A DNA stretch of 64,000 nucleotides from a virus. Each line of letters starts with the position of its first letter. The first letter of the stretch is position 1. Location of the stretch: positions 1 through 64,000 of the IMG/VR virus record IMGVR_UViG_3300001533_002564. One strand, 5' to 3'. This document shows, in pieces, positions 3,014-31,930 of this stretch. The notes below the pieces were generated by a model. It made no database searches. It was not told the DNA's origin and worked only from the letters and a program-made list of their open reading frames with translations. Position numbers and translations under genes: made by a program.

Positions 3014-4324
3014 TCATTTATTTTCAAAATATTTTTCTTTAATATTAATTGCTGCATTTAAATCAGCGTTCATTGTATGACCACATATAACACAAATAAA
3101 TTTTGATTGTGTTTGTCTATTTAATTTATTAGTATGACCACATTTTGAACATTTTTGTGATGTATGTTTAGGGTTAACAGTTACAACATTTTTACCGACA
3201 TATTCTGCTTTATATTGCATTTTAGTCCTCAATGAATATAAACCAACATCACTAAGAACCCGATTTAAATTACTTTTATTATTTGATTTACCTTTTCCAC
3301 TTCTTTTCATCATACCTTTTAAATTCAAATCTTCAAGAATATAAGTATCTACATCTTCTAATTCAATTAATGATTTTGAGATACAATGCTGTATATAATC
3401 ACGTTTTTCAGTTATTTTAAAATAAAGATTATTTATTTTTTTCTTAATTCTTTTATATGATGTAGTTTCCCAGAAATTAATGTCGGTTTTATTTTTTTTA
3501 TGATAATCTCTTTTTCTATTTAATATTTTTGATAATCGGTGTAATTCAGATTTATATTGTTTTAATAATGATATGGAATTTTTATAAATATCAATATTAA
3601 AATGTAATTCATCTGATGTTGTAATTGGTCTATGAACACCGAAATCAATACCAACACTAGTTTTTTTATCTATTGGTTTTTTTGTTTCAATAATTAATTT
3701 ATTTGGGTCATTTACATCACATTGTAATGATATAAAATATTTATCATTTTTTCTAGAAATCGTATATGAATTAATTTTAATAAATTTATTATTATCCCAA
3801 TTTTCAGAAAAAAAATGATTATGACATGATATTTTAATTTTTTTTATTTTAGGTATATCAATTAATCCAAATTTATTATTCAATAATTTTAAATTAAATG
3901 TTTTAGGTTTATTTTCATTATATTGTATTTGTCCTGTAAATGAATGTTTTGATTTTTGATTTTTAAATTTAGGAAATCCACTTCCCATTTTTTTTATATT
4001 AGCAAACGCTTTTTCAATAGCTTTTAAACTATATGTTTTACTTGTTGAGTCAATATTTTTTAAAAACCAAAATTCATCTGTATTTCCCATTTGAGTTAAA
4101 ATTTTACTCATTTCATATCTATTAAAATACAGGTTATTATCTTTCATATATTTATTACGTTCTTTTTTATCAACAATACCTATTTCAGTCATTTTATCTG
4201 AAATATCAATTTGTTGTCTTAAGCAATAATTATAAATAAATCTTGAAGTTCTAAATGAATCATCAAATGATTTAATTTGTTCGGGTGTTGGGTATATTCT
4301 AAACTTAAATGCTTTAGATATCAT
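3014..4324 (-). CDS. tnpB: TnpB/Cas12f-like RNA-guided nuclease (436 aa)
   Basis: AFKFRIYPT N-terminus, RuvC-I VGIDFG, RuvC-II LEDL, zinc ribbon CSKC/CVIC, RuvC-III NADLNAA; no tnpA nearby. Confidence 0.9.
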   Translation of the reverse strand: MISKAFKFRIYPTPEQIKSFDDSFRTSRFIYNYCLRQQIDISDKMTEIGIVDKKERNKYMKDNNLYFNRYEMSKILTQMGNTDEFWFLKNIDSTSKTYSLKAIEKAFANIKKMGSGFPKFKNQKSKHSFTGQIQYNENKPKTFNLKLLNNKFGLIDIPKIKKIKISCHNHFFSENWDNNKFIKINSYTISRKNDKYFISLQCDVNDPNKLIIETKKPIDKKTSVGIDFGVHRPITTSDELHFNIDIYKNSISLLKQYKSELHRLSKILNRKRDYHKKNKTDINFWETTSYKRIKKKINNLYFKITEKRDYIQHCISKSLIELEDVDTYILEDLNLKGMMKRSGKGKSNNKSNLNRVLSDVGLYSLRTKMQYKAEYVGKNVVTVNPKHTSQKCSKCGHTNKLNRQTQSKFICVICGHTMNADLNAAINIKEKYFENK

Positions 4325-7031: not shown

Positions 7032-10000
7032 TTATCCACATTTACTATTTCCACATCCCATACAAATAAGACATCCTTCTTTGTATTGTAGGTCATTACT
7101 GCCACATACAGGACAAGTGCCTTTACCTTTTTCACCGTCTTTAATATATCTTTTAATGACACGAGTAACACCATTTTTCCAAGTATTAATATAATCTTCT
7201 TTAAAATTTAATGAATCAATTAATTCAAAAACATATACTAATGGCATTTTATGTCTTAATACCCCAGAAATAAATTTAGCATAATTCCAGAATTCGGGAT
7301 TAAATGCGTGGTTTAGTCCAGTAAAAATATGTTTATCTCCTTGTGAATCAATATATTCAATATCATATCGTTTTCTTTTTACTTTAACTATTTTACCATC
7401 AATAAGTTCATCTATTTCAATAATATTTTTTACAACTTCACATTCAGTAATTAATGGAGGTAGTGAACTTAAACCATTTTCAAGACGACCAGTAAAAATT
7501 TCGTATGGATGACCATCTTTTAATCCAACAACAGCAATCCATTTTTCAAGTTTATTTTGAAAACGATGTATTTCTGCTTTTAATCTTTTTCCTCTTTTGG
7601 GTGCATGAACTTCTTCAATTGCCACTTCTTTTTTCTCATTATTAGATATTAGAACACCACTTCTACTACCTTCACGATAAACAGTCATTCCTTTACAACC
7701 AGCACTCCATCCAGTTTCATATACTTGACGAACTAAATCTTCAGTTGCTTCTTCGGGTAAATTAACTGTCACACTAATACTATGGTCAACATGTTTTTGT
7801 ATTCTACCTTGCATTTCAACTTTCTTAACCCAATCAACATCATTTGAAGTAGCTTTATAATAAGGTGATTTTTTTACTATTTCATCAACTTGTTCTTCTG
7901 TCATTGTTTTAACAATATCAACATCATAATCATTTGCTTTTAACCATGTTTTAAAGTTGTTATGGAAGACAAGATATTCTTTCCATGCAATTCCTTCTTC
8001 ATCAACAAAATCTATTTGAATATCTTTTTCTTGTGGATTAATTTTTCTTCTTCTTTTATAAACAGGTAAGAAAACAGGTTCAATTCCTGATGTTGTCTGT
8101 GTCATTAAACTTGCAGTACCTGTAGGTGCTATTGTTAATAATGCAATATTTCTACGACCATATTTAACCATGTCTGCATATAGTTCAGGATTTGCTTCTT
8201 TTATACGTAAAATAAATGGATTATTCTTTTCTCTTTTAGCGTCATAAATTGGAAATGCTCCACGTTCTTTTGCTAATATAACCGATGATTTATATGCATT
8301 TAATTTTAAATTTTCATGTACTTTTTCACTAAAATCATTTACACTATCAGTCCCATATGTAAGACTTAATGCTGCAAGCATGTCACCTTCAGCAGTAACA
8401 CCTAAACCAGTTCTTCTGCCTTCAATTGCTTTTTCTCTGATTTTAGTCCATAAATTAATTTCATATAATTTAATGAATTCATCTTCAGGGTCTAATTTAA
8501 TTTTAGCTAGAATATTATCAATTTTTTCTAATTCTAAATCAATAATATCATCCATATAACGCATAGCAATAATTACATCATTTTTAAATAAATCCCAATC
8601 AAAATAAGAATCAGAAGTAAATGGATTAACAACATATCCGTACAAATTAAGTGCAAGTAATCTACAACTATCATATGGACATAAAGGTATTTCACCACAA
8701 TTGTGCACACTAATTCCATTGCAATCAAATTCATGTGCAATATCAACATTACAATCATAAACATCTTCAACACCTACTAATTTTATTGATTTAATTGAAT
8801 CAGTGAAATATTCTTTATATAAACCACGCTTTAAATTATTTAATACATTATCTAATTTTGTTTGTTTATTAACGTCCTTAAAACCAATACGTTTATTAAA
8901 AACCAATAAATTTTCTTTAGATATTACTAACTCATGTTGTGCTTTTACATTATATTCTTTTTTACCACCATTACCATCAGGTAACATTTTTTTACTGTCT
9001 AATCTCCTATTTTTAAATATTGATGAGACGATACCTAACCTTAGTAACATTCTTTGAATAACTTCCAGATTATTAAGATTAGATGAAGATAGTCTAACAT
9101 TAATACCCTTTTTACTATTATTTAATACTGTACCATCAGCATCTAATATTCCTGAAATAAAACCACGATAAAAATCAGAACTTTGTGATTCAATTGCATA
9201 ACCTAAATTCTTACCGTCAAACAATCCTAAATCATTTGCTATTCTACCTAATGGATTTGATTTAACAGTAATTATTTCATTATTATCGTCACCACTACCA
9301 AGACTATCGTTATAATTCAATGATGTTTTAATTAAATCAACAGCAATTTTTTTCATTGTTGCTCGATTTTCACCCCAATATCTTAAATATGCAGTTTCAT
9401 TTACTAGAGAACCATCACCAACTAATGAACCAATTAACCAACCAATTTTATCATCGTAATTACTATCCCATGAAGATTTTAAATTTTGGTTTTTATTATA
9501 ATTTAAATTAAGTACGTCACCTTCAATCAAATCACCTAACTCAACCCATTCATATGATTTTTTTCCTCGATTTTGTTTAATAACCCTTTTAAACTTATGA
9601 TTATCAGTAGCTTTTATCTTTAAACCACGATTAGTTTCAACTTCATAAACCTTTTTATCTCCAGTATAGAAAAAACCGCCTTTTGATAAATATTGCTCGT
9701 TATCAACCAGTGCAGTAAAATCTTTACCAATTAATTCATTAACTTGTTTCGGTCCTTCATTTGTCATCACCCAAGAATCACTTGTAACACAAGGATTAGT
9801 ACTTGTTGTTTTAAATCCTAAGTCAGCATAACAATCAGGAATACTTTCAGAGATTACTTTATCCCAGAAAAGAATACCGGGTTCGCCTGATTTCCATGCA
9901 TTATGTATTATTTTTTTCCAAAGTTTTGTTGGGTCAATTTCTTTTATGATTTTAGGATTATCGCTATCAATTGGATATTTTTGTTCAAAAGCATACTCAT

Positions 10001-10688
10001 ATTTTGCAGCTTTCATAAATTCATCAGTTAATCTTACTGAAACGTTAGCACCAGTAACTTTACCTTCACTCATTTTTGCATCAATAAAATCTTCAGCATC
10101 AGGATGATTAATTGAAACACTTAACATTAATGCGCCTCTTCGACCATCTTGTGCTACTTCTTTTGTACTATTTGAATATCTTTCCATAAAAGGAACAATT
10201 CCAGTACTTGTTATCGCACTATTTTTTACTGGACTTCCTTTAGGACGAATAAATGACAGGTCTTGTCCTACTCCACCTCGTCTTTTTTGAAGTTGAACCA
10301 TATCTTGATCGAGTTTCATAATTCCACCATAACTATCACTGTCTTTATTATTTCCAATTACAAAACAATTAGATAGTGATATTATTTGAAAATTATTACC
10401 AATACCAGACATCGAACCACCTTGTGGAACAATTCTTTTAAAATTTTTAATTGTTTTATAAATTTCTTTTGCAGATAATGCATTAGGATATTTAGCTTCG
10501 ATTCTCGCAAATTCTTTTGCTAATCTCCTATGCATATTATCTGGGGATAATTCATAATAATTATTATCGTCTTTTAAACAATATTTTTTTATCCAGACAT
10601 CTGTAGCTAATTGGTCGTTATTAAAATAAGTTAATGTTGCTTCTTCAACTTGTTCTTTTGTATAAGTTTTTTTGGTTTTTTCTATCAT
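7032..10688 (-). CDS. nrdJ: Class II (B12-dependent) ribonucleotide reductase with intein
   Basis: SLSNCFV, RRGA, TNPC/GEIPL, APTGT, KGMTVYR, C-terminal zinc ribbon. Confidence 0.93.
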   Translation of the reverse strand: MIEKTKKTYTKEQVEEATLTYFNNDQLATDVWIKKYCLKDDNNYYELSPDNMHRRLAKEFARIEAKYPNALSAKEIYKTIKNFKRIVPQGGSMSGIGNNFQIISLSNCFVIGNNKDSDSYGGIMKLDQDMVQLQKRRGGVGQDLSFIRPKGSPVKNSAITSTGIVPFMERYSNSTKEVAQDGRRGALMLSVSINHPDAEDFIDAKMSEGKVTGANVSVRLTDEFMKAAKYEYAFEQKYPIDSDNPKIIKEIDPTKLWKKIIHNAWKSGEPGILFWDKVISESIPDCYADLGFKTTSTNPCVTSDSWVMTNEGPKQVNELIGKDFTALVDNEQYLSKGGFFYTGDKKVYEVETNRGLKIKATDNHKFKRVIKQNRGKKSYEWVELGDLIEGDVLNLNYNKNQNLKSSWDSNYDDKIGWLIGSLVGDGSLVNETAYLRYWGENRATMKKIAVDLIKTSLNYNDSLGSGDDNNEIITVKSNPLGRIANDLGLFDGKNLGYAIESQSSDFYRGFISGILDADGTVLNNSKKGINVRLSSSNLNNLEVIQRMLLRLGIVSSIFKNRRLDSKKMLPDGNGGKKEYNVKAQHELVISKENLLVFNKRIGFKDVNKQTKLDNVLNNLKRGLYKEYFTDSIKSIKLVGVEDVYDCNVDIAHEFDCNGISVHNCGEIPLCPYDSCRLLALNLYGYVVNPFTSDSYFDWDLFKNDVIIAMRYMDDIIDLELEKIDNILAKIKLDPEDEFIKLYEINLWTKIREKAIEGRRTGLGVTAEGDMLAALSLTYGTDSVNDFSEKVHENLKLNAYKSSVILAKERGAFPIYDAKREKNNPFILRIKEANPELYADMVKYGRRNIALLTIAPTGTASLMTQTTSGIEPVFLPVYKRRRKINPQEKDIQIDFVDEEGIAWKEYLVFHNNFKTWLKANDYDVDIVKTMTEEQVDEIVKKSPYYKATSNDVDWVKKVEMQGRIQKHVDHSISVTVNLPEEATEDLVRQVYETGWSAGCKGMTVYREGSRSGVLISNNEKKEVAIEEVHAPKRGKRLKAEIHRFQNKLEKWIAVVGLKDGHPYEIFTGRLENGLSSLPPLITECEVVKNIIEIDELIDGKIVKVKRKRYDIEYIDSQGDKHIFTGLNHAFNPEFWNYAKFISGVLRHKMPLVYVFELIDSLNFKEDYINTWKNGVTRVIKRYIKDGEKGKGTCPVCGSNDLQYKEGCLICMGCGNSKCG
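8700..9791 (-). mobile_element. LAGLIDADG intein in NrdJ (364 aa) at the active-site NPC
   Basis: TNP|CVTSDSW...ATDNH...GSLVGDG...GILDADG...SVHN|CGEIPL. Confidence 0.93.
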
Positions 10689-13121: not shown

Positions 13122-13206
13122 TTCATTATACGGGACTCGAACCCGTGCGCAAGGATTAAGGATAGCATGTGCGTTTCCTTTGCTCTACCAACTGAGCTAC
13201 TAATGC
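13122..13206 (-). pseudogene. tRNA-like gene with expanded anticodon loop (possibly Lys-CTT-derived)
   Basis: Canonical D and T arms; AAGGA-(20 nt ending CCTTAA)-TCCTT. Confidence 0.5.
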
Positions 13207-13686: not shown

Positions 13687-14769
13687 TTACACATCATCAT
13701 AACCATTACTAAATGGTTTACTATATTTTGGTCTAATCATTTTCCAAATAATATCTGCATATGGTCTTTTATCATATAATTTAAATAAAATTGCACGATA
13801 ATTTGATTGTTTTGCTTGTTCAGCAAACTCAGTACGGTTACTTATGTCATTAATATGATAAATTCTTACAAATTCCAATAATGATTGTCTTTCAGTTTCA
13901 TTATATTGATTTTGTAGTTTATTTATTGTTCTTTTTAACCAATCATAAAATTCATCAGGAACTCTATCAAATAACCCATCAAAATCATAATTATTTTTCA
14001 AATGTTCCCAAACAATTACATTAGAAACATTTGTTAATATACCATGCAATCTAACATATTCATTAAACTTAACTTTAACTCTAAATCCATTAAAAAATCT
14101 AATTACAAAACCTTCTTTATTTTCTTCTTCAAGTGCTTTAAGTTCAGTTAAATTTTCAATATTCTTAATTTTATGTCTTTTTACAATGGTAAATAATTTT
14201 GAATATTGTGCAACCATATCGTCATAATATTGTTCAAAACCTGTTTCCGTATTAATTACTGATAATAAAATTAAGTCATACATATCACCATAATCAACAA
14301 CAATCCTGTTTTCAGGATAAATTATTTCAAATAAATAAGTATTATTTTCGTCAAATTTATCATAAGTATTTACATTAAGCATCTTTTTTGCTTCGATTGC
14401 TTGTTCTGAAATAAATGAACCTCTTGATGCAATAATCCAAACCATACGTGGTTTATAGTAGAATAATATAATTAAAGAACCATCCATTTTTTCAAAAATA
14501 TCATAATCTTGTGATAAATCAATTTCTGTTGAATCATGTTCTTCAATATTCTTGAATTTCTGGAATGGACGAGCTAATATATTACCATCAATATCAACAA
14601 CCATTCCACGACAAGACATAGTATATTCATCCCAAAACTTCTTTGATTGTGCTTTAGGACTATAATTAAGTATCCACATATCGTATTCTAGATGTTTATT
14701 TGCTATAATTAAATTATTATCAATATAATGATTTAATTTTTCCCAATTTAATTTTTTTAACATTTTCAT
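13687..14769 (-). CDS. T4 Rnl1-like RNA ligase
   Basis: CRGMV, PFQKFKN, EKMDGS (motif I), ASRGSF, EGFVI, VKVK. Confidence 0.88.
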   Translation of the reverse strand: MKMLKKLNWEKLNHYIDNNLIIANKHLEYDMWILNYSPKAQSKKFWDEYTMSCRGMVVDIDGNILARPFQKFKNIEEHDSTEIDLSQDYDIFEKMDGSLIILFYYKPRMVWIIASRGSFISEQAIEAKKMLNVNTYDKFDENNTYLFEIIYPENRIVVDYGDMYDLILLSVINTETGFEQYYDDMVAQYSKLFTIVKRHKIKNIENLTELKALEEENKEGFVIRFFNGFRVKVKFNEYVRLHGILTNVSNVIVWEHLKNNYDFDGLFDRVPDEFYDWLKRTINKLQNQYNETERQSLLEFVRIYHINDISNRTEFAEQAKQSNYRAILFKLYDKRPYADIIWKMIRPKYSKPFSNGYDDV

Positions 14770-20788: not shown

Positions 20789-20919
20789 AAAGGGACTTTC
20801 TTAAAGTAATCATTATCGGTCACGCTCCGAAACGGTCTAAGATAATTCTTTCATAACTTTCCCCATGAAATCCAGTTATGTATGTTTGCAAACTTTCTTT
20901 AAGTTTTATTCGTCCCTTT
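20789..20919 (-). ncRNA. Putative structured ncRNA directly 3' of tmRNA
   Basis: AAAGGGAC/GTCCCTTT closing stem; CTTAAAG/CTTTAAG, CATAACT/AGTTATG and ATTATC/GATAAT inner stems. Confidence 0.4.
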
Positions 20920-20921
20920 AG

Positions 20922-21285
20922 TGGAGTTGACGGGATTTGAACCCGTGTCCGCATGGTTGATTAATTAATTTTCTACAAGTTTAGGATAAAATTTTCTAAT
21001 TTTCCAAAAATAGTATGATTTAATTCTTAGTTTTTATTCTGGATTCATTACTTTTCTCATACAAACTCATTTCACCAGAAAGTTTTTGTTGATTTTTTTA
21101 CGACTTCCTATGCTGCAAATGCAAGTTCAACATTCTTTGCAAATACACTTTCTCCTCTCGTAAGAGAAGTCGGAATAGACATTATGTCTTCTGCGTTTAT
21201 TGTTTTGTACTTTTTTTAAGTAAATATTACAACTACTACTTGCTTATTAATCTCTCTACACCATCGTCAAAACCAAGACAACCCC
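20922..21285 (-). ncRNA. ssrA: tmRNA
   Basis: GGGGTTG/CAACTCC-A acceptor with G3.U70, GGTTTTGAC, T arm, tag ORF 21194-21108 AEDIMSIPTSLTRGESVFAKNVELAFAA*. Confidence 0.92.
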
Positions 21286-24115: not shown

Positions 24116-24206
24116 ATGAAGTGCTACGCCACCTTGCACCATCCCGTTTAAGAATCACCAGAAACGAGCAGGAATCGAACCAGTTAAGAACTATTGCAAT
24201 AAGTTG

Positions 24207-24293
24207 TACCCACAGATGGATTCGAACCACCGTTATACTACTCGCCTCTTCCTTGTAAGGGAAGTGCTCTTAACCTGACTGAGCTATGTGGGC
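24207..24293 (-). tRNA. tRNA-Val(TAC) with enlarged variable region
   Basis: CTTCC-CTTACAA-GGAAG. Confidence 0.8.
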
Positions 24294-26816: not shown

Positions 26817-26837
26817 CCAACATGTCAAAGAACTATA
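26817..26837 (-). promoter_or_regulatory. boxA-like antitermination element
   Basis: Identical to 1449-1469. Confidence 0.65.
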
Positions 26838-30104: not shown

Positions 30105-30163
30105 ATTTTTATGCACTCCAGAACTCATAAACATACTTTATGAGTCCCAGAACTCATATTTTG

Positions 30164-30247
30164 CTGACCCCGTGGGACTCGAACCCACAAACCTTTACGG
30201 CATCTGCTTCAAAGACAGACGTGTTTAGCCAATTCCACCAAAGGTCA
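30164..30247 (-). tRNA. tRNA with TTG (Gln) anticodon on a Leu-type class II body
   Basis: TCTGT-CTTTGAA-GCAGA, variable arm TGCCGTAAAGGT, U1-A72, G73. Confidence 0.8.
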
Positions 30248-30979
30248 ATTTCTATTTTGTTCGTATTTTTTTTGCCATTTTTTTATTGTAACATCACTAA
30301 CACCATATTTTCTACCCGTTGCAGAATAACCCAAATTATTAATATCACACATTAATTTTTCATAATCTGGTCGTTTTACTTTTCTTTGTTTTAAACTAAT
30401 TTCATTTTGACAATTTTCACAAAAAACTTTATTATTAACAGAAATACCACATTTTATACAATAATTAAGTTTTCTTTTTTTATTGTTTTTCTTTTTTTTA
30501 CCAGCATAATTTTCAGTTTGCGAATGACAATTTGGACATAATAATCTTAAATTAGTTATTCTATTATCATTATTCTTACCATTAATGTGATCTAATTGTA
30601 ATACCAATGGTTTATCTAACCAAGAATTAATTTGACAAATAGCGCATTCATTTTTTAATAATCCTAAATTCAATAATTTTTTCTTTAAATTTACTGAAGA
30701 AGTATATGTTGAATTTTTAACTAAAATATTTTCAATTGGTATTGGTTTAAATTTATTCCCTTGTGAAATATTTTCTTGTCTTCTTTTTTTCACATTATTA
30801 TTGAATTTTTCATGACTAATATTTTCAATTTTTGTTCTATATCGAAGCATTTTTATTAATGATTTCGAAACATTTAAATTTATTTTTTTGAAAAATTCAT
30901 CATATGATGATGAAGTATCTAAATTTTCTTGTATCAACTCTTTACTAAATTGCCATATAATATGTTTTCTCATACCCAC
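30245..30979 (-). CDS. HNH homing endonuclease
   Basis: LQLDHINGKNNDN...LCPNCHSQT plus HTH. Confidence 0.88.
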   Translation of the reverse strand: MGMRKHIIWQFSKELIQENLDTSSSYDEFFKKINLNVSKSLIKMLRYRTKIENISHEKFNNNVKKRRQENISQGNKFKPIPIENILVKNSTYTSSVNLKKKLLNLGLLKNECAICQINSWLDKPLVLQLDHINGKNNDNRITNLRLLCPNCHSQTENYAGKKKKNNKKRKLNYCIKCGISVNNKVFCENCQNEISLKQRKVKRPDYEKLMCDINNLGYSATGRKYGVSDVTIKKWQKKYEQNRN

Positions 30980-31015
30980 AAATTTAATATAAATACTGTG
31001 GGTTTGAGAAAAATG

Positions 31016-31088
31016 TCGAGAATGTCAGATTCGAACTGCAACTTATCATCCCAAATGATATATGATACCTGATTTCACCACATTCTCG
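31016..31088 (-). tRNA. tRNA-Pro(TGG)
   Basis: TATCA-TTTGGGA-TGATA. Confidence 0.8.
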
Positions 31089-31118
31089 TAATAATATTTC
31101 AAAGAACTTAAGTTTTTA

Positions 31119-31192
31119 GGGTGTAAGGACGGTACTGACCCGTCTTCTCCAAATTCACAGTTTGGCGCCATCACCTTAATGCTTCAAACACC
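31119..31192 (-). tRNA. tRNA-His(GTG)
   Basis: CCAAA-CTGTGAA-TTTGG, G-1/C73; two acceptor mismatches. Confidence 0.75.
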
Positions 31193-31208
31193 ATATAATA
31201 TTTTATTG

Positions 31209-31283
31209 TCTGAGTGGCAAGATTCGAACTTGCGAACACGTGCTTCCAAGGCACGCCCATATAGCCGTCTGTGGAACACCCAG
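31209..31283 (-). tRNA. tRNA-Pro(TGG)
   Basis: CGTGC-CTTGGAA-GCACG. Confidence 0.88.
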
Positions 31284-31317: not shown

Positions 31318-31446
31318 TTACTTCTTGCCTTTTAAAGCAGCCAGTCTACCCTGCATTCTACGTGCCTTTTCTGGATTGTCTTTAAATTGCAGAAGCTGTC
31401 TTTCCAATCTCTTTCTTCTGTTTTCAACACTTTTTTCCTTTGCCAT
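31318..31446 (-). CDS. Small basic protein (42 aa) at the head of the Pro/His/Gln operon
   Basis: MAKEKSVENRRKRLERQLLQFKDNPEKARRMQGRLAALKGKK. Confidence 0.55.
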   Translation of the reverse strand: MAKEKSVENRRKRLERQLLQFKDNPEKARRMQGRLAALKGKK

Positions 31447-31477: not shown

Positions 31478-31508
31478 AAAAAAACCCCACTCTTTTCAGA
31501 ATGGGGTT
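31478..31508 (-). terminator. Attenuator terminator 4
   Basis: AACCCCATTC-TGAAAA-GAGTGGGGTT plus U-tract. Confidence 0.85.
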
Positions 31509-31539
31509 CGTGTTTAACCCAAAACTTCTTCTCGAAAAA

Positions 31540-31614
31540 TTAAGTGTAGCTTCCCCATTCACCATCCTGTGGATGTTGTTGCGGTTGGGGTTGTATGTTC
31601 ACTAAATTTTTCAT
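31540..31614 (-). CDS. Leader peptide 4, MKNLVNIQPQPQQHPQDGEWGSYT (24 aa)
   Basis: QPQPQQHPQ run; GAATGGGG (31553-31560) complementary to the terminator 5' arm. Confidence 0.82.
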   Translation of the reverse strand: MKNLVNIQPQPQQHPQDGEWGSYT

Positions 31615-31930
31615 CTTAAAAATATATTCAGTGCAAATATAGCACTTAAAATCATAAATACAAAGAAATCTGATAAAAAATCGATTTTTTATTAAAAAAA
31701 GATTGCACCACGAAATAAATGTGGTGCAATCAGAAAATTAGTCAAGTCTCAAATTTTACATAACCACTATCTGGCAATAAAATTAAAAAACCATTCCTGA
31801 TTTACTCAGACCTAACTTAATTTATAATTAAGCAATGACTTTCAAGAATAAATACTCATAAATCTATTTTTCAATATAAAAAAATAAAAAATTTTATAAT
31901 ATTTCTAACTATTTATTAATAAAATATGTC

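Follow-up and report, generated by a model that had tools for sequence, protein, structure and literature searches.

On the minus strand of an uncultured freshwater phage genome, we found a compact unit, about 190 nt from promoter to terminator end, that is likely to be a ribosome-mediated leader-peptide transcription attenuator of the trp/his type controlling tRNA genes. Its parts, their geometry, the coding-type conservation of the leader across relatives and the match between the leader codons and the tRNA content of the block behind it are read directly from the sequence and its computational analysis. Three sister units in the analyzed window share its layout (leaders at 27000-26914, 13554-13462 and 1666-1538), and we hereinafter refer to the unit preceding the Gln/Pro/His tRNAs as unit 4. 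To our knowledge, the control of phage tRNA genes is largely unknown, the usual view being that tRNA arrays are co-transcribed early, for codon usage or for replacing cleaved host tRNAs. If the attenuator reading is true, unit 4 would sense the tRNA pool directly and receive feedback from its own products, its codons spelling the operon's own tRNA content, and the trp/his paradigm would reach beyond metabolism, into both the translation apparatus and viruses.

Genomic context of the tRNA array

The contig is 104,188 bp long with a G+C content of 26%, and the window is its first 64 kb. Its phage genes include those for an Rnl1-type RNA ligase, an intein-bearing ribonucleotide reductase and many homing endonucleases, and its minus strand carries an array of 25 tRNA matches and a tmRNA. 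Contig DNA is present in aquatic and freshwater-sediment metagenome DNA runs. In a database comparison, the closest RNA ligase is 35% identical, and the leader and terminator of unit 4 have no counterpart in GenBank phage records, where matches are restricted to the HNH gene and a tRNA; hence, the phage has no close cultured relative. The host type is inferred from the promoter type alone. We rejected a host assignment via three GTDB MAG matches (Anaerolinea, Paceibacterota and Comamonadaceae), as one of the contigs equals an IMG/VR phage contig in length and these are thus probably mis-binned phage DNA.

Architecture of unit 4

Read in the direction of transcription, unit 4 and the block behind it comprise the following features:

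31701..31731, minus strand: intrinsic terminator of the upstream transcription unit (terminator scan: 11-pair hairpin, then T run)
31634..31664, minus strand: promoter of the Bacteroidota sigma-A type (TTTG, 19 nt, TAnnTTTG), conserved in relatives
31540..31614, minus strand: leader ORF of 24 codons plus TAA (ATG at 31614, TAA at 31542-31540)
31567..31593, minus strand: putative sensor run, leader codons 8-16, QPQPQQHPQ; doubles as segment 1, the 5' strand of the 1:2 hairpin
31553..31560, minus strand: segment 2, GAATGGGG, which can pair with segment 1 or with the terminator 5' arm
31499-31506, minus strand: core of the terminator 5' arm, CCCCATTC, complement of segment 2
31478..31509, minus strand: intrinsic terminator, i.e., segments 3 and 4 plus the U tract (12 pairs, hairpin 31509-31482, GAAA loop, seven T)
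31318..31446, minus strand: 42-aa basic ORF between the terminator and the first tRNA
31208..31283, minus strand: tRNA-Pro (tgg)
31120..31191, minus strand: tRNA-His (gtg), weak (Rfam 29.3 bits)
31015..31088, minus strand: tRNA-Pro (tgg)
30245..30979, minus strand: HNH homing-endonuclease ORF inserted in the tRNA block (weak Pfam HNH matches)
30163..30247, minus strand: tRNA-Gln (ttg), 85 nt, with an extra variable stem-loop
30031..30104, minus strand: tRNA-Gln (ttg)

The original prediction, made from the sequence alone, had described an attenuator with nine consecutive Gln, Pro or His codons ahead of tRNAs for Pro, His, Pro, Gln and Gln. The run is present as codons 8-16 (31593-31567), and all five tRNA genes were located, the His gene being weak. 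Support for the attenuator reading itself now comes from the four-segment geometry, folds with a ribosome mask, coding conservation in about 50 contigs, tRNA co-occurrence and the sister units. The range then assigned to it, 31478-31645, covers the leader and the terminator but misses the promoter (31664-31634).

The terminator at 31701..31731, whose own 5' arm lacks an upstream complement, insulates unit 4 against upstream read-through. The promoter follows the arrangement TTTG, 19 nt, TAnnTTTG, which we take to be the Bacteroidota promoter consensus. The motif occurs in eight copies in the genome, three of which precede leaders 1, 3 and 4.

The peptide QPQPQQHPQ is the longest Pro/His/Gln run in all six frames of the 104-kb genome, the runner-up having six residues, and Pro, His and Gln together make up 7.6% of the residues of the genome's long ORFs. 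Two of the leader's three Pro codons are CCC and CCG, which account for 4% and 5%, respectively, of the Pro codons in the phage genes. The choice of such rare codons might make the sensor sharper or might favour the 1:2 pairing, two roles that cannot be separated here. A 33-codon ORF in another frame (31565-31464) was dismissed, as it is not conserved in relatives. The tRNA-His gene scores 29.3 bits against the Rfam cutoff of 29, is called by ARAGORN at a relaxed threshold only and has two U.U pairs in its acceptor stem; judging by these features, it is weak and possibly decaying. The HNH ORF at 30245..30979 shows DNA similarity to HNH genes of T4-like phages.

Alternative pairings and the predicted switch

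The pairing between a leader segment and a terminator arm, which had been claimed to be perfect, is so: GAATGGGG (31560-31553) is an uninterrupted 8-bp complement of CCCCATTC (31506-31499). The resulting 2:3 helix has an energy of about -10.5 kcal/mol and the terminator (3:4) helix one of -18.9 kcal/mol. Because the antiterminator is the less stable of the two helices, kinetics rather than equilibrium stability must decide between them, as in trp, where the 2:3 and 3:4 helix energies are close to those of unit 4. In a shuffle test confined to the 130 nt upstream of the terminator 5' arm, an 8-nt G+C-rich complement of that arm arose in 179 of 20,000 shuffles (0.9%) for unit 4, and in 204, 5 and 363 per 20,000 for the three sister units.

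We then folded the RNA under the constraint of a ribosome footprint reaching from 15 nt upstream to 13 nt downstream of the first base of the A-site codon. When the A site was placed on any of codons 7-13, the nascent RNA adopted the complete 2:3 helix of eight pairs. Moving the A site to codon 15 or any later codon, including the stop, buried segment 2 under the ribosome; the antiterminator was then absent and the full RNA folded into the terminator. Without a ribosome, the minimum-energy structure combines a 1:2 hairpin, made of the codon run and the GAATGGGG segment, with the terminator.

These folds can be arranged into the following scheme. Host RNA polymerase would initiate at the Bacteroidota-type promoter and transcribe the 24-codon leader. 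Were the nine Gln, Pro and His codons decoded rapidly, the ribosome would reach the stop, 10 nt past segment 2, and cover that segment, whereupon the terminator hairpin would form and transcription would cease ahead of the tRNA genes. Were charged tRNA-Gln, tRNA-Pro or tRNA-His in short supply, the ribosome would stall in the run, melting the 1:2 hairpin and leaving segment 2 free to pair with the emerging terminator 5' arm, thereby letting the polymerase continue through the 42-aa ORF to the Pro, His, Pro, Gln and Gln tRNAs. The tRNAs so produced would relieve the stall, resulting in a negative-feedback control of supply for exactly the tRNAs encoded. In the absence of translation, both 1:2 and 3:4 would form, predicting termination. 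Thus, in this scheme the Gln, Pro and His tRNAs are probably made only upon slow decoding of their codons. Translation of the leader, function of the terminator in the host and a response of read-through to tRNA supply are each inferred, there being no RNA or bench data.

Relatives of unit 4

The same unit recurs in about 50 IMG/VR contigs, recovered by a structure or a promoter search and all retaining the Gln/Pro/His run. Related contigs in general were reached by three independent routes, namely via the RNA ligase protein (14 loci), via a structure pattern and via the promoter alone. The structure pattern specified segments 2, 3 and 4 and the T run only, leaving the codon run unspecified; it matched 45 IMG/VR contigs, in 44 of which the reading frame spanning segment 2 encodes this leader, Gln/Pro/His run included. 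All 31 IMG/VR matches of the promoter-only search lie upstream of a unit-4 leader, with three of the contigs being new. Across 33 distinct upstream regions, the promoter is nearly identical base for base. A search for more divergent units via the gene upstream of unit 4 in L003, L009 and L011 returned the same three contigs only. In L009, a G+C-rich insert of about 270 nt (L009:460-730) separates the conserved promoter from the unit-4 leader; a permissive Rfam scan of this insert found no family.

The terminator is paired in 98.9% of cells across 36 sequences. G.U pairs or mismatches are frequent in its 3' arm, whereas the complementarity of segment 2 to the 5' arm is perfect in 34 of the 36, a disparity that would fit a balanced competition between the two helices. 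Every relative possesses the 2:3 pairing. In two of the three contigs new to the promoter-only search (L063 and L064), segment 2 reads GAATGGGA and retains 7 bp to the 5' arm. The near-invariance of the core of segments 2, 3 and 4 in this sample is partly due to the first search having demanded that core. As the 2:3 core is near-invariant, direct compensatory evidence rests on the three paralogous units and on a divergent type recovered by the promoter-only search (L011 and L066), in which the terminator arms have changed and segment 2 with them, 9 of 10 positions being complementary. The 1:2 hairpin is only partly conserved across the relatives, its outer helix being paired in 87% of cells and its inner helix in 56%. 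The bases in this pairing are also those of conserved codons; hence, it does not count as independent evidence.

Leader composition and the four tRNA blocks

In the relatives, the tRNAs following the unit-4 leader are Pro, His and Gln only, until the next block, with one Arg exception; this comparison is limited to contigs with available downstream sequence. The leader of L052 is the sole one with an Arg codon (CGC) inside the run and also the sole one whose first downstream tRNA is Arg(acg). A further claim of covariation, that L054 and L003 lack both the His codon and tRNA-His, was dropped, since relaxed ARAGORN finds a weak tRNA-His and codon 6 is His. The first tRNA begins no more than 30 nt past the U tract in 30 of the 44 contigs, and 11-30 nt past it in most. 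This leaves little room for a second promoter, implying that expression from the conserved promoter needs read-through.

The four blocks comprise Gln/Pro/His; Asp/Glu/Val/Leu/Ala/Trp/Met plus tmRNA; Lys/Tyr, beside the Rnl1-type ligase; and Cys/Ile/Ser/Phe/Gly/Arg/Asn/Thr, and jointly cover all 20 amino acids. The array order is kept in relatives: Pro/His/Gln; Asp/Glu/Val/Leu/Ala/Trp/tmRNA/Leu/Met; the ligase; Lys/Tyr; and later Cys/Ile/Ser/Phe/Arg/Gly/Asn/Thr. In a 4 x 4 table of leader composition against the tRNA set of each block, enrichment appears on the diagonal only (p values of 2e-5, 2e-5, 2e-3 and 4e-7). Leader composition also predicts tRNAs that lie out of sight: the unit-1 leader is rich in Thr, Arg, Gly, Phe and Asn, the tRNAs for which are missing from the contig, and so foretold Thr, Arg, Gly and Phe tRNAs beyond the contig end; exactly the Thr, Arg, Gly, Phe and Asn tRNAs stand behind the homologous unit-1 leader in the relatives.

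All four leader classes recur in the relatives reached via the RNA ligase, with co-variation of segment 2 and the terminator arm, and the four terminators are sequence variants of one another. As had been observed earlier, the leaders of units 3 and 4 both open with ATGAAAAATTTA, and the corresponding MKNL start is kept by both classes in the relatives. The suggestion made from this shared start, that the two units are a duplicated cassette, remains plausible on such sequence grounds.

A less specific function might also be considered, in which the attenuator senses general translation capacity, amino-acid starvation or EF-P-dependent pausing at proline, with the block being switched by global translational stress. 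Proline is intrinsically slow in peptide-bond formation and its pausing is EF-P-dependent. Three Pro codons, specifying this slowly incorporated residue, lie in the run, and to a ribosome the absence of a tRNA looks no different from its lack of charging; a sensor of this kind responds to charged tRNA, and scarcity of the tRNA and scarcity of the amino acid are therefore indistinguishable to it. There is also a precedent in the trn tRNA array of Anabaena, which is induced by general translational stress (PMC8421152, PMC10272220). Nevertheless, the partition of amino acids among the four leaders is exactly that among the four tRNA blocks, which a general sensor would not need; the Gln and His codons are as strictly conserved as the Pro codons; and the Arg codon and Arg tRNA co-occur in L052. 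We therefore regard global-stress sensing as unlikely.

Returning to attenuators with codon-specific leaders, we tentatively posit that the four together might form an on-demand tRNA replacement system, with each leader watching the codons of its own block, and that they might serve counter-defence and homeostasis rather than simple codon-usage compensation. Under such a scheme, a block would be on only when the host pool fails, for example, upon anticodon-nuclease cleavage or phage-induced decay of host tRNAs. This functional proposal is possible, but we hold it with considerably less confidence than the attenuator mechanism itself.

Conservation of the leader as a coding sequence

The leader behaves as a coding sequence. 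Across 36 distinct sequences, it retains its ATG, its reading frame and its stop, with indels within the ORF being of 3 or 6 nt only, whereas gaps in the spacer after the stop are of any length; that spacer, between the leader stop and the terminator, varies in both length and sequence. In each of the 36, exactly three codons separate segment 2 from the stop that follows. Codons 9-15 (Pro-Gln-Pro-Gln-Gln-His-Pro) keep their amino acid in 24-25 of the 25 ungapped distinct leaders, and the third base varies at codons 9-13 (CCC/CCT/CCA/CCG and CAA/CAG). Codons 14 (CAT) and 15 (CCA) are near-invariant across the same 25. The amino acid is free to change at codons 5, 6, 8, 16-18 and 22-24. Outside the codon run, the MKNL start and the EWG.Y tail of the peptide are conserved.

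This conservation beyond the run, at both the MKNL start and the EWG.Y tail, raises the prospect that the leader specifies an independently functioning micro-protein. The hairpin would then be an ordinary terminator that leaks, or an element governing RNA stability, and the correspondence between peptide and tRNAs would be incidental; the genome does contain other conserved small ORFs, such as the 42-aa ORF. We consider this very improbable. EWG is encoded by segment 2 itself, so that RNA pairing explains its conservation, and a micro-protein leaves unexplained the perfect complement to the terminator arm, the fixed distance of three codons to the stop, the placement of a terminator 11-30 nt before otherwise promoterless tRNA genes and a like correspondence at three further units whose peptides are very different. 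Least credible of all is an untranslated RNA switch whose C/A-rich tract and G-rich segment bind a protein or tRNA (T-box or PyrR/TRAP-like) with the frame a by-product: although the tract participates in the predicted 1:2 hairpin and Bacteroidota mRNAs lack a Shine-Dalgarno sequence, making translation unreadable from sequence, this is contradicted by the synonymous third-base variation, the in-frame-only indels and the conserved ATG and stop, by codon 9 variants that break the 1:2 pairing yet retain proline, and by the absence of any T-box, riboswitch or leader match in Rfam scans of the window at the gathering threshold and of the homologous unit in L009 at a permissive one.

The 42-aa ORF behind the terminator

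The 42-aa ORF (31446-31318, minus strand), with a net charge of about +10, had been proposed as the first gene under the control of unit 4 and as a possible ribosome- or RNA-binding effector. It is indeed the first gene behind the terminator here, but is absent in most relatives, being missing where tRNA-Pro begins 11-30 nt past the terminator. Homologues occupy the same place, between the terminator and the first tRNA-Pro, in four of the fetched contigs (L018, L032, L051 and L030), and eight database proteins, all unnamed, are 71-93% identical to it. The ORF is thus present in only a minority of relatives, which points to an optional passenger; on this sequence evidence, we take it to be a real gene of unknown role and no core part of the unit.

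As for the binding role, the homology and structure searches neither support nor refute it. Pfam yielded only sub-threshold matches and the PDB profile matches were spurious; the best score in the protein atlas was 0.76, to an unnamed viral cluster. AlphaFold predicts a plain helix-turn-helix hairpin (mean pLDDT 81.6), for which Foldseek found no significant fold match (best E-value 3.8). Helical-hairpin look-alikes at E > 3, including 70S ribosome chains and a WHEP-TRS domain, were rejected as evidence.

Comparison with known systems

An Rfam scan of the whole window at gathering thresholds recovered tRNA and tmRNA only, with no leader family or T-box, and the homologous unit of L009, scanned permissively, yielded nothing beyond two sub-threshold chance matches. 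A full-text literature search did not find leader-peptide attenuation of tRNA genes. Unit 4 shares with the classical attenuators trpL, hisL, pheL and leuL a promoter, a short ORF of regulatory codons, an intrinsic terminator and predicted competing 1:2/3:4 and 2:3 pairings, of which the 1:2 hairpin is only partly kept in relatives. The stop codon again lies near segment 2, an untranslated leader is predicted to lead to termination, and the 2:3 and 3:4 helix energies are of the same order as in trp. Unit 4 differs from the trpL type in that it would control tRNA genes rather than enzymes, so that its product acts directly on the sensor, and in being phage-borne, with a Bacteroidota-type promoter and a sensor for three amino acids together; neither sequence nor Rfam relates the two. 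Comparison of sequences gives the attenuator reading good support; the predicted mechanism is of a known kind with a new target, tRNA genes.

Mixed codons within one leader have their counterpart in thrL (Thr, Ile) and ilvL (Ile, Val, Leu), where any shortage leads to read-through. However, the mixture in those leaders reflects a shared biosynthetic pathway, whereas that of unit 4 mirrors the operon's list of tRNA genes, and the sister units mix as many as 7-8 amino acids. In pheM, which regulates phenylalanyl-tRNA synthetase (pheST), leader-peptide attenuation likewise acts on a translation component that serves the sensed codon; unlike unit 4, it regulates a synthetase rather than tRNA, is cellular and senses a single amino acid. 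T-boxes share the logic of a terminator/antiterminator switch that reports the state of a specific tRNA and controls genes serving that tRNA. They do so by binding uncharged tRNA via a specifier codon and the T-box sequence, without translation, as opposed to the conserved ORF of unit 4, for which translation is inferred. Finally, the trn array of Anabaena, the closest published example of conditional tRNA array expression, is also an accessory tRNA array switched on under impaired translation (PMC8421152). It is chromosomal or borne on a megaplasmid rather than phage-encoded, and its control lies with the repressor protein TrcR (PMC10272220) rather than a leader. The words leader, attenuation and terminator are all absent from the main text of the 2021 study (PMC8421152).

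Additional elements in and around the array

The motif GTATTTAT occurs in 55 copies in the 104 kb, often just upstream of ORFs, including homing-endonuclease genes of the array (for example, at 30996, 26622, 25264, 19996 and 13600 on the minus strand), and is, going by this distribution, probably a phage-specific promoter motif. A copy overlaps the -33 element of the unit-4 promoter, at 31661. The copy at 30996 stands upstream of the HNH gene inside the unit-4 block, and because of it both Gln tRNAs may also arise by a route that bypasses the attenuator.

A conserved box, AGTTCTTTGA[C/A]AT, is found on the minus strand at 1454-1466, 26822-26834 and 31096-31108, and also in L003 (~925-945) and L009 (~885-905). 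After the terminators of units 1 and 3, it lies within 21 identical nucleotides (1449-1469 and 26817-26837); in unit 4, it is placed between tRNA-His and the second tRNA-Pro. It resembles the boxA antitermination site of rRNA operons and contains TTGACA. From this resemblance, it could be a loading site for NusB/E on the long untranslated array, or a promoter element.

The tmRNA (20919-21285, minus strand; Rfam 98 bits) sits inside the unit-3 tRNA block, a place kept in relatives, and would hence be co-regulated with the Asp, Glu, Val, Leu, Ala, Trp and Met tRNAs. In all relatives, the gene for the Rnl1-type RNA ligase (13687-14769, minus strand) immediately precedes the Lys/Tyr unit, with its attenuator and tRNA block (13554-12801). 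Several host anticodon nucleases are known to act on Lys and Tyr tRNAs. A tRNA-like element at 13122-13206 (minus strand) scores 39 bits in Rfam, the sole ARAGORN reading being Ala(tgc) with 6 additional nucleotides inserted into the anticodon loop. Long extra variable arms or loops are seen in tRNAs that are normally of class I, namely Gln (85 nt, 30163-30247) and Val (88 nt, 24206-24293), and likewise in a 96-nt Pro tRNA of the relative L063 (L063:993-1088). Elsewhere on the minus strand, the window encodes a TnpB/IS605 OrfB-like gene (3014-4324) and the large subunit of ribonucleotide reductase (7032-10688), the latter interrupted by an intein with a LAGLIDADG domain.
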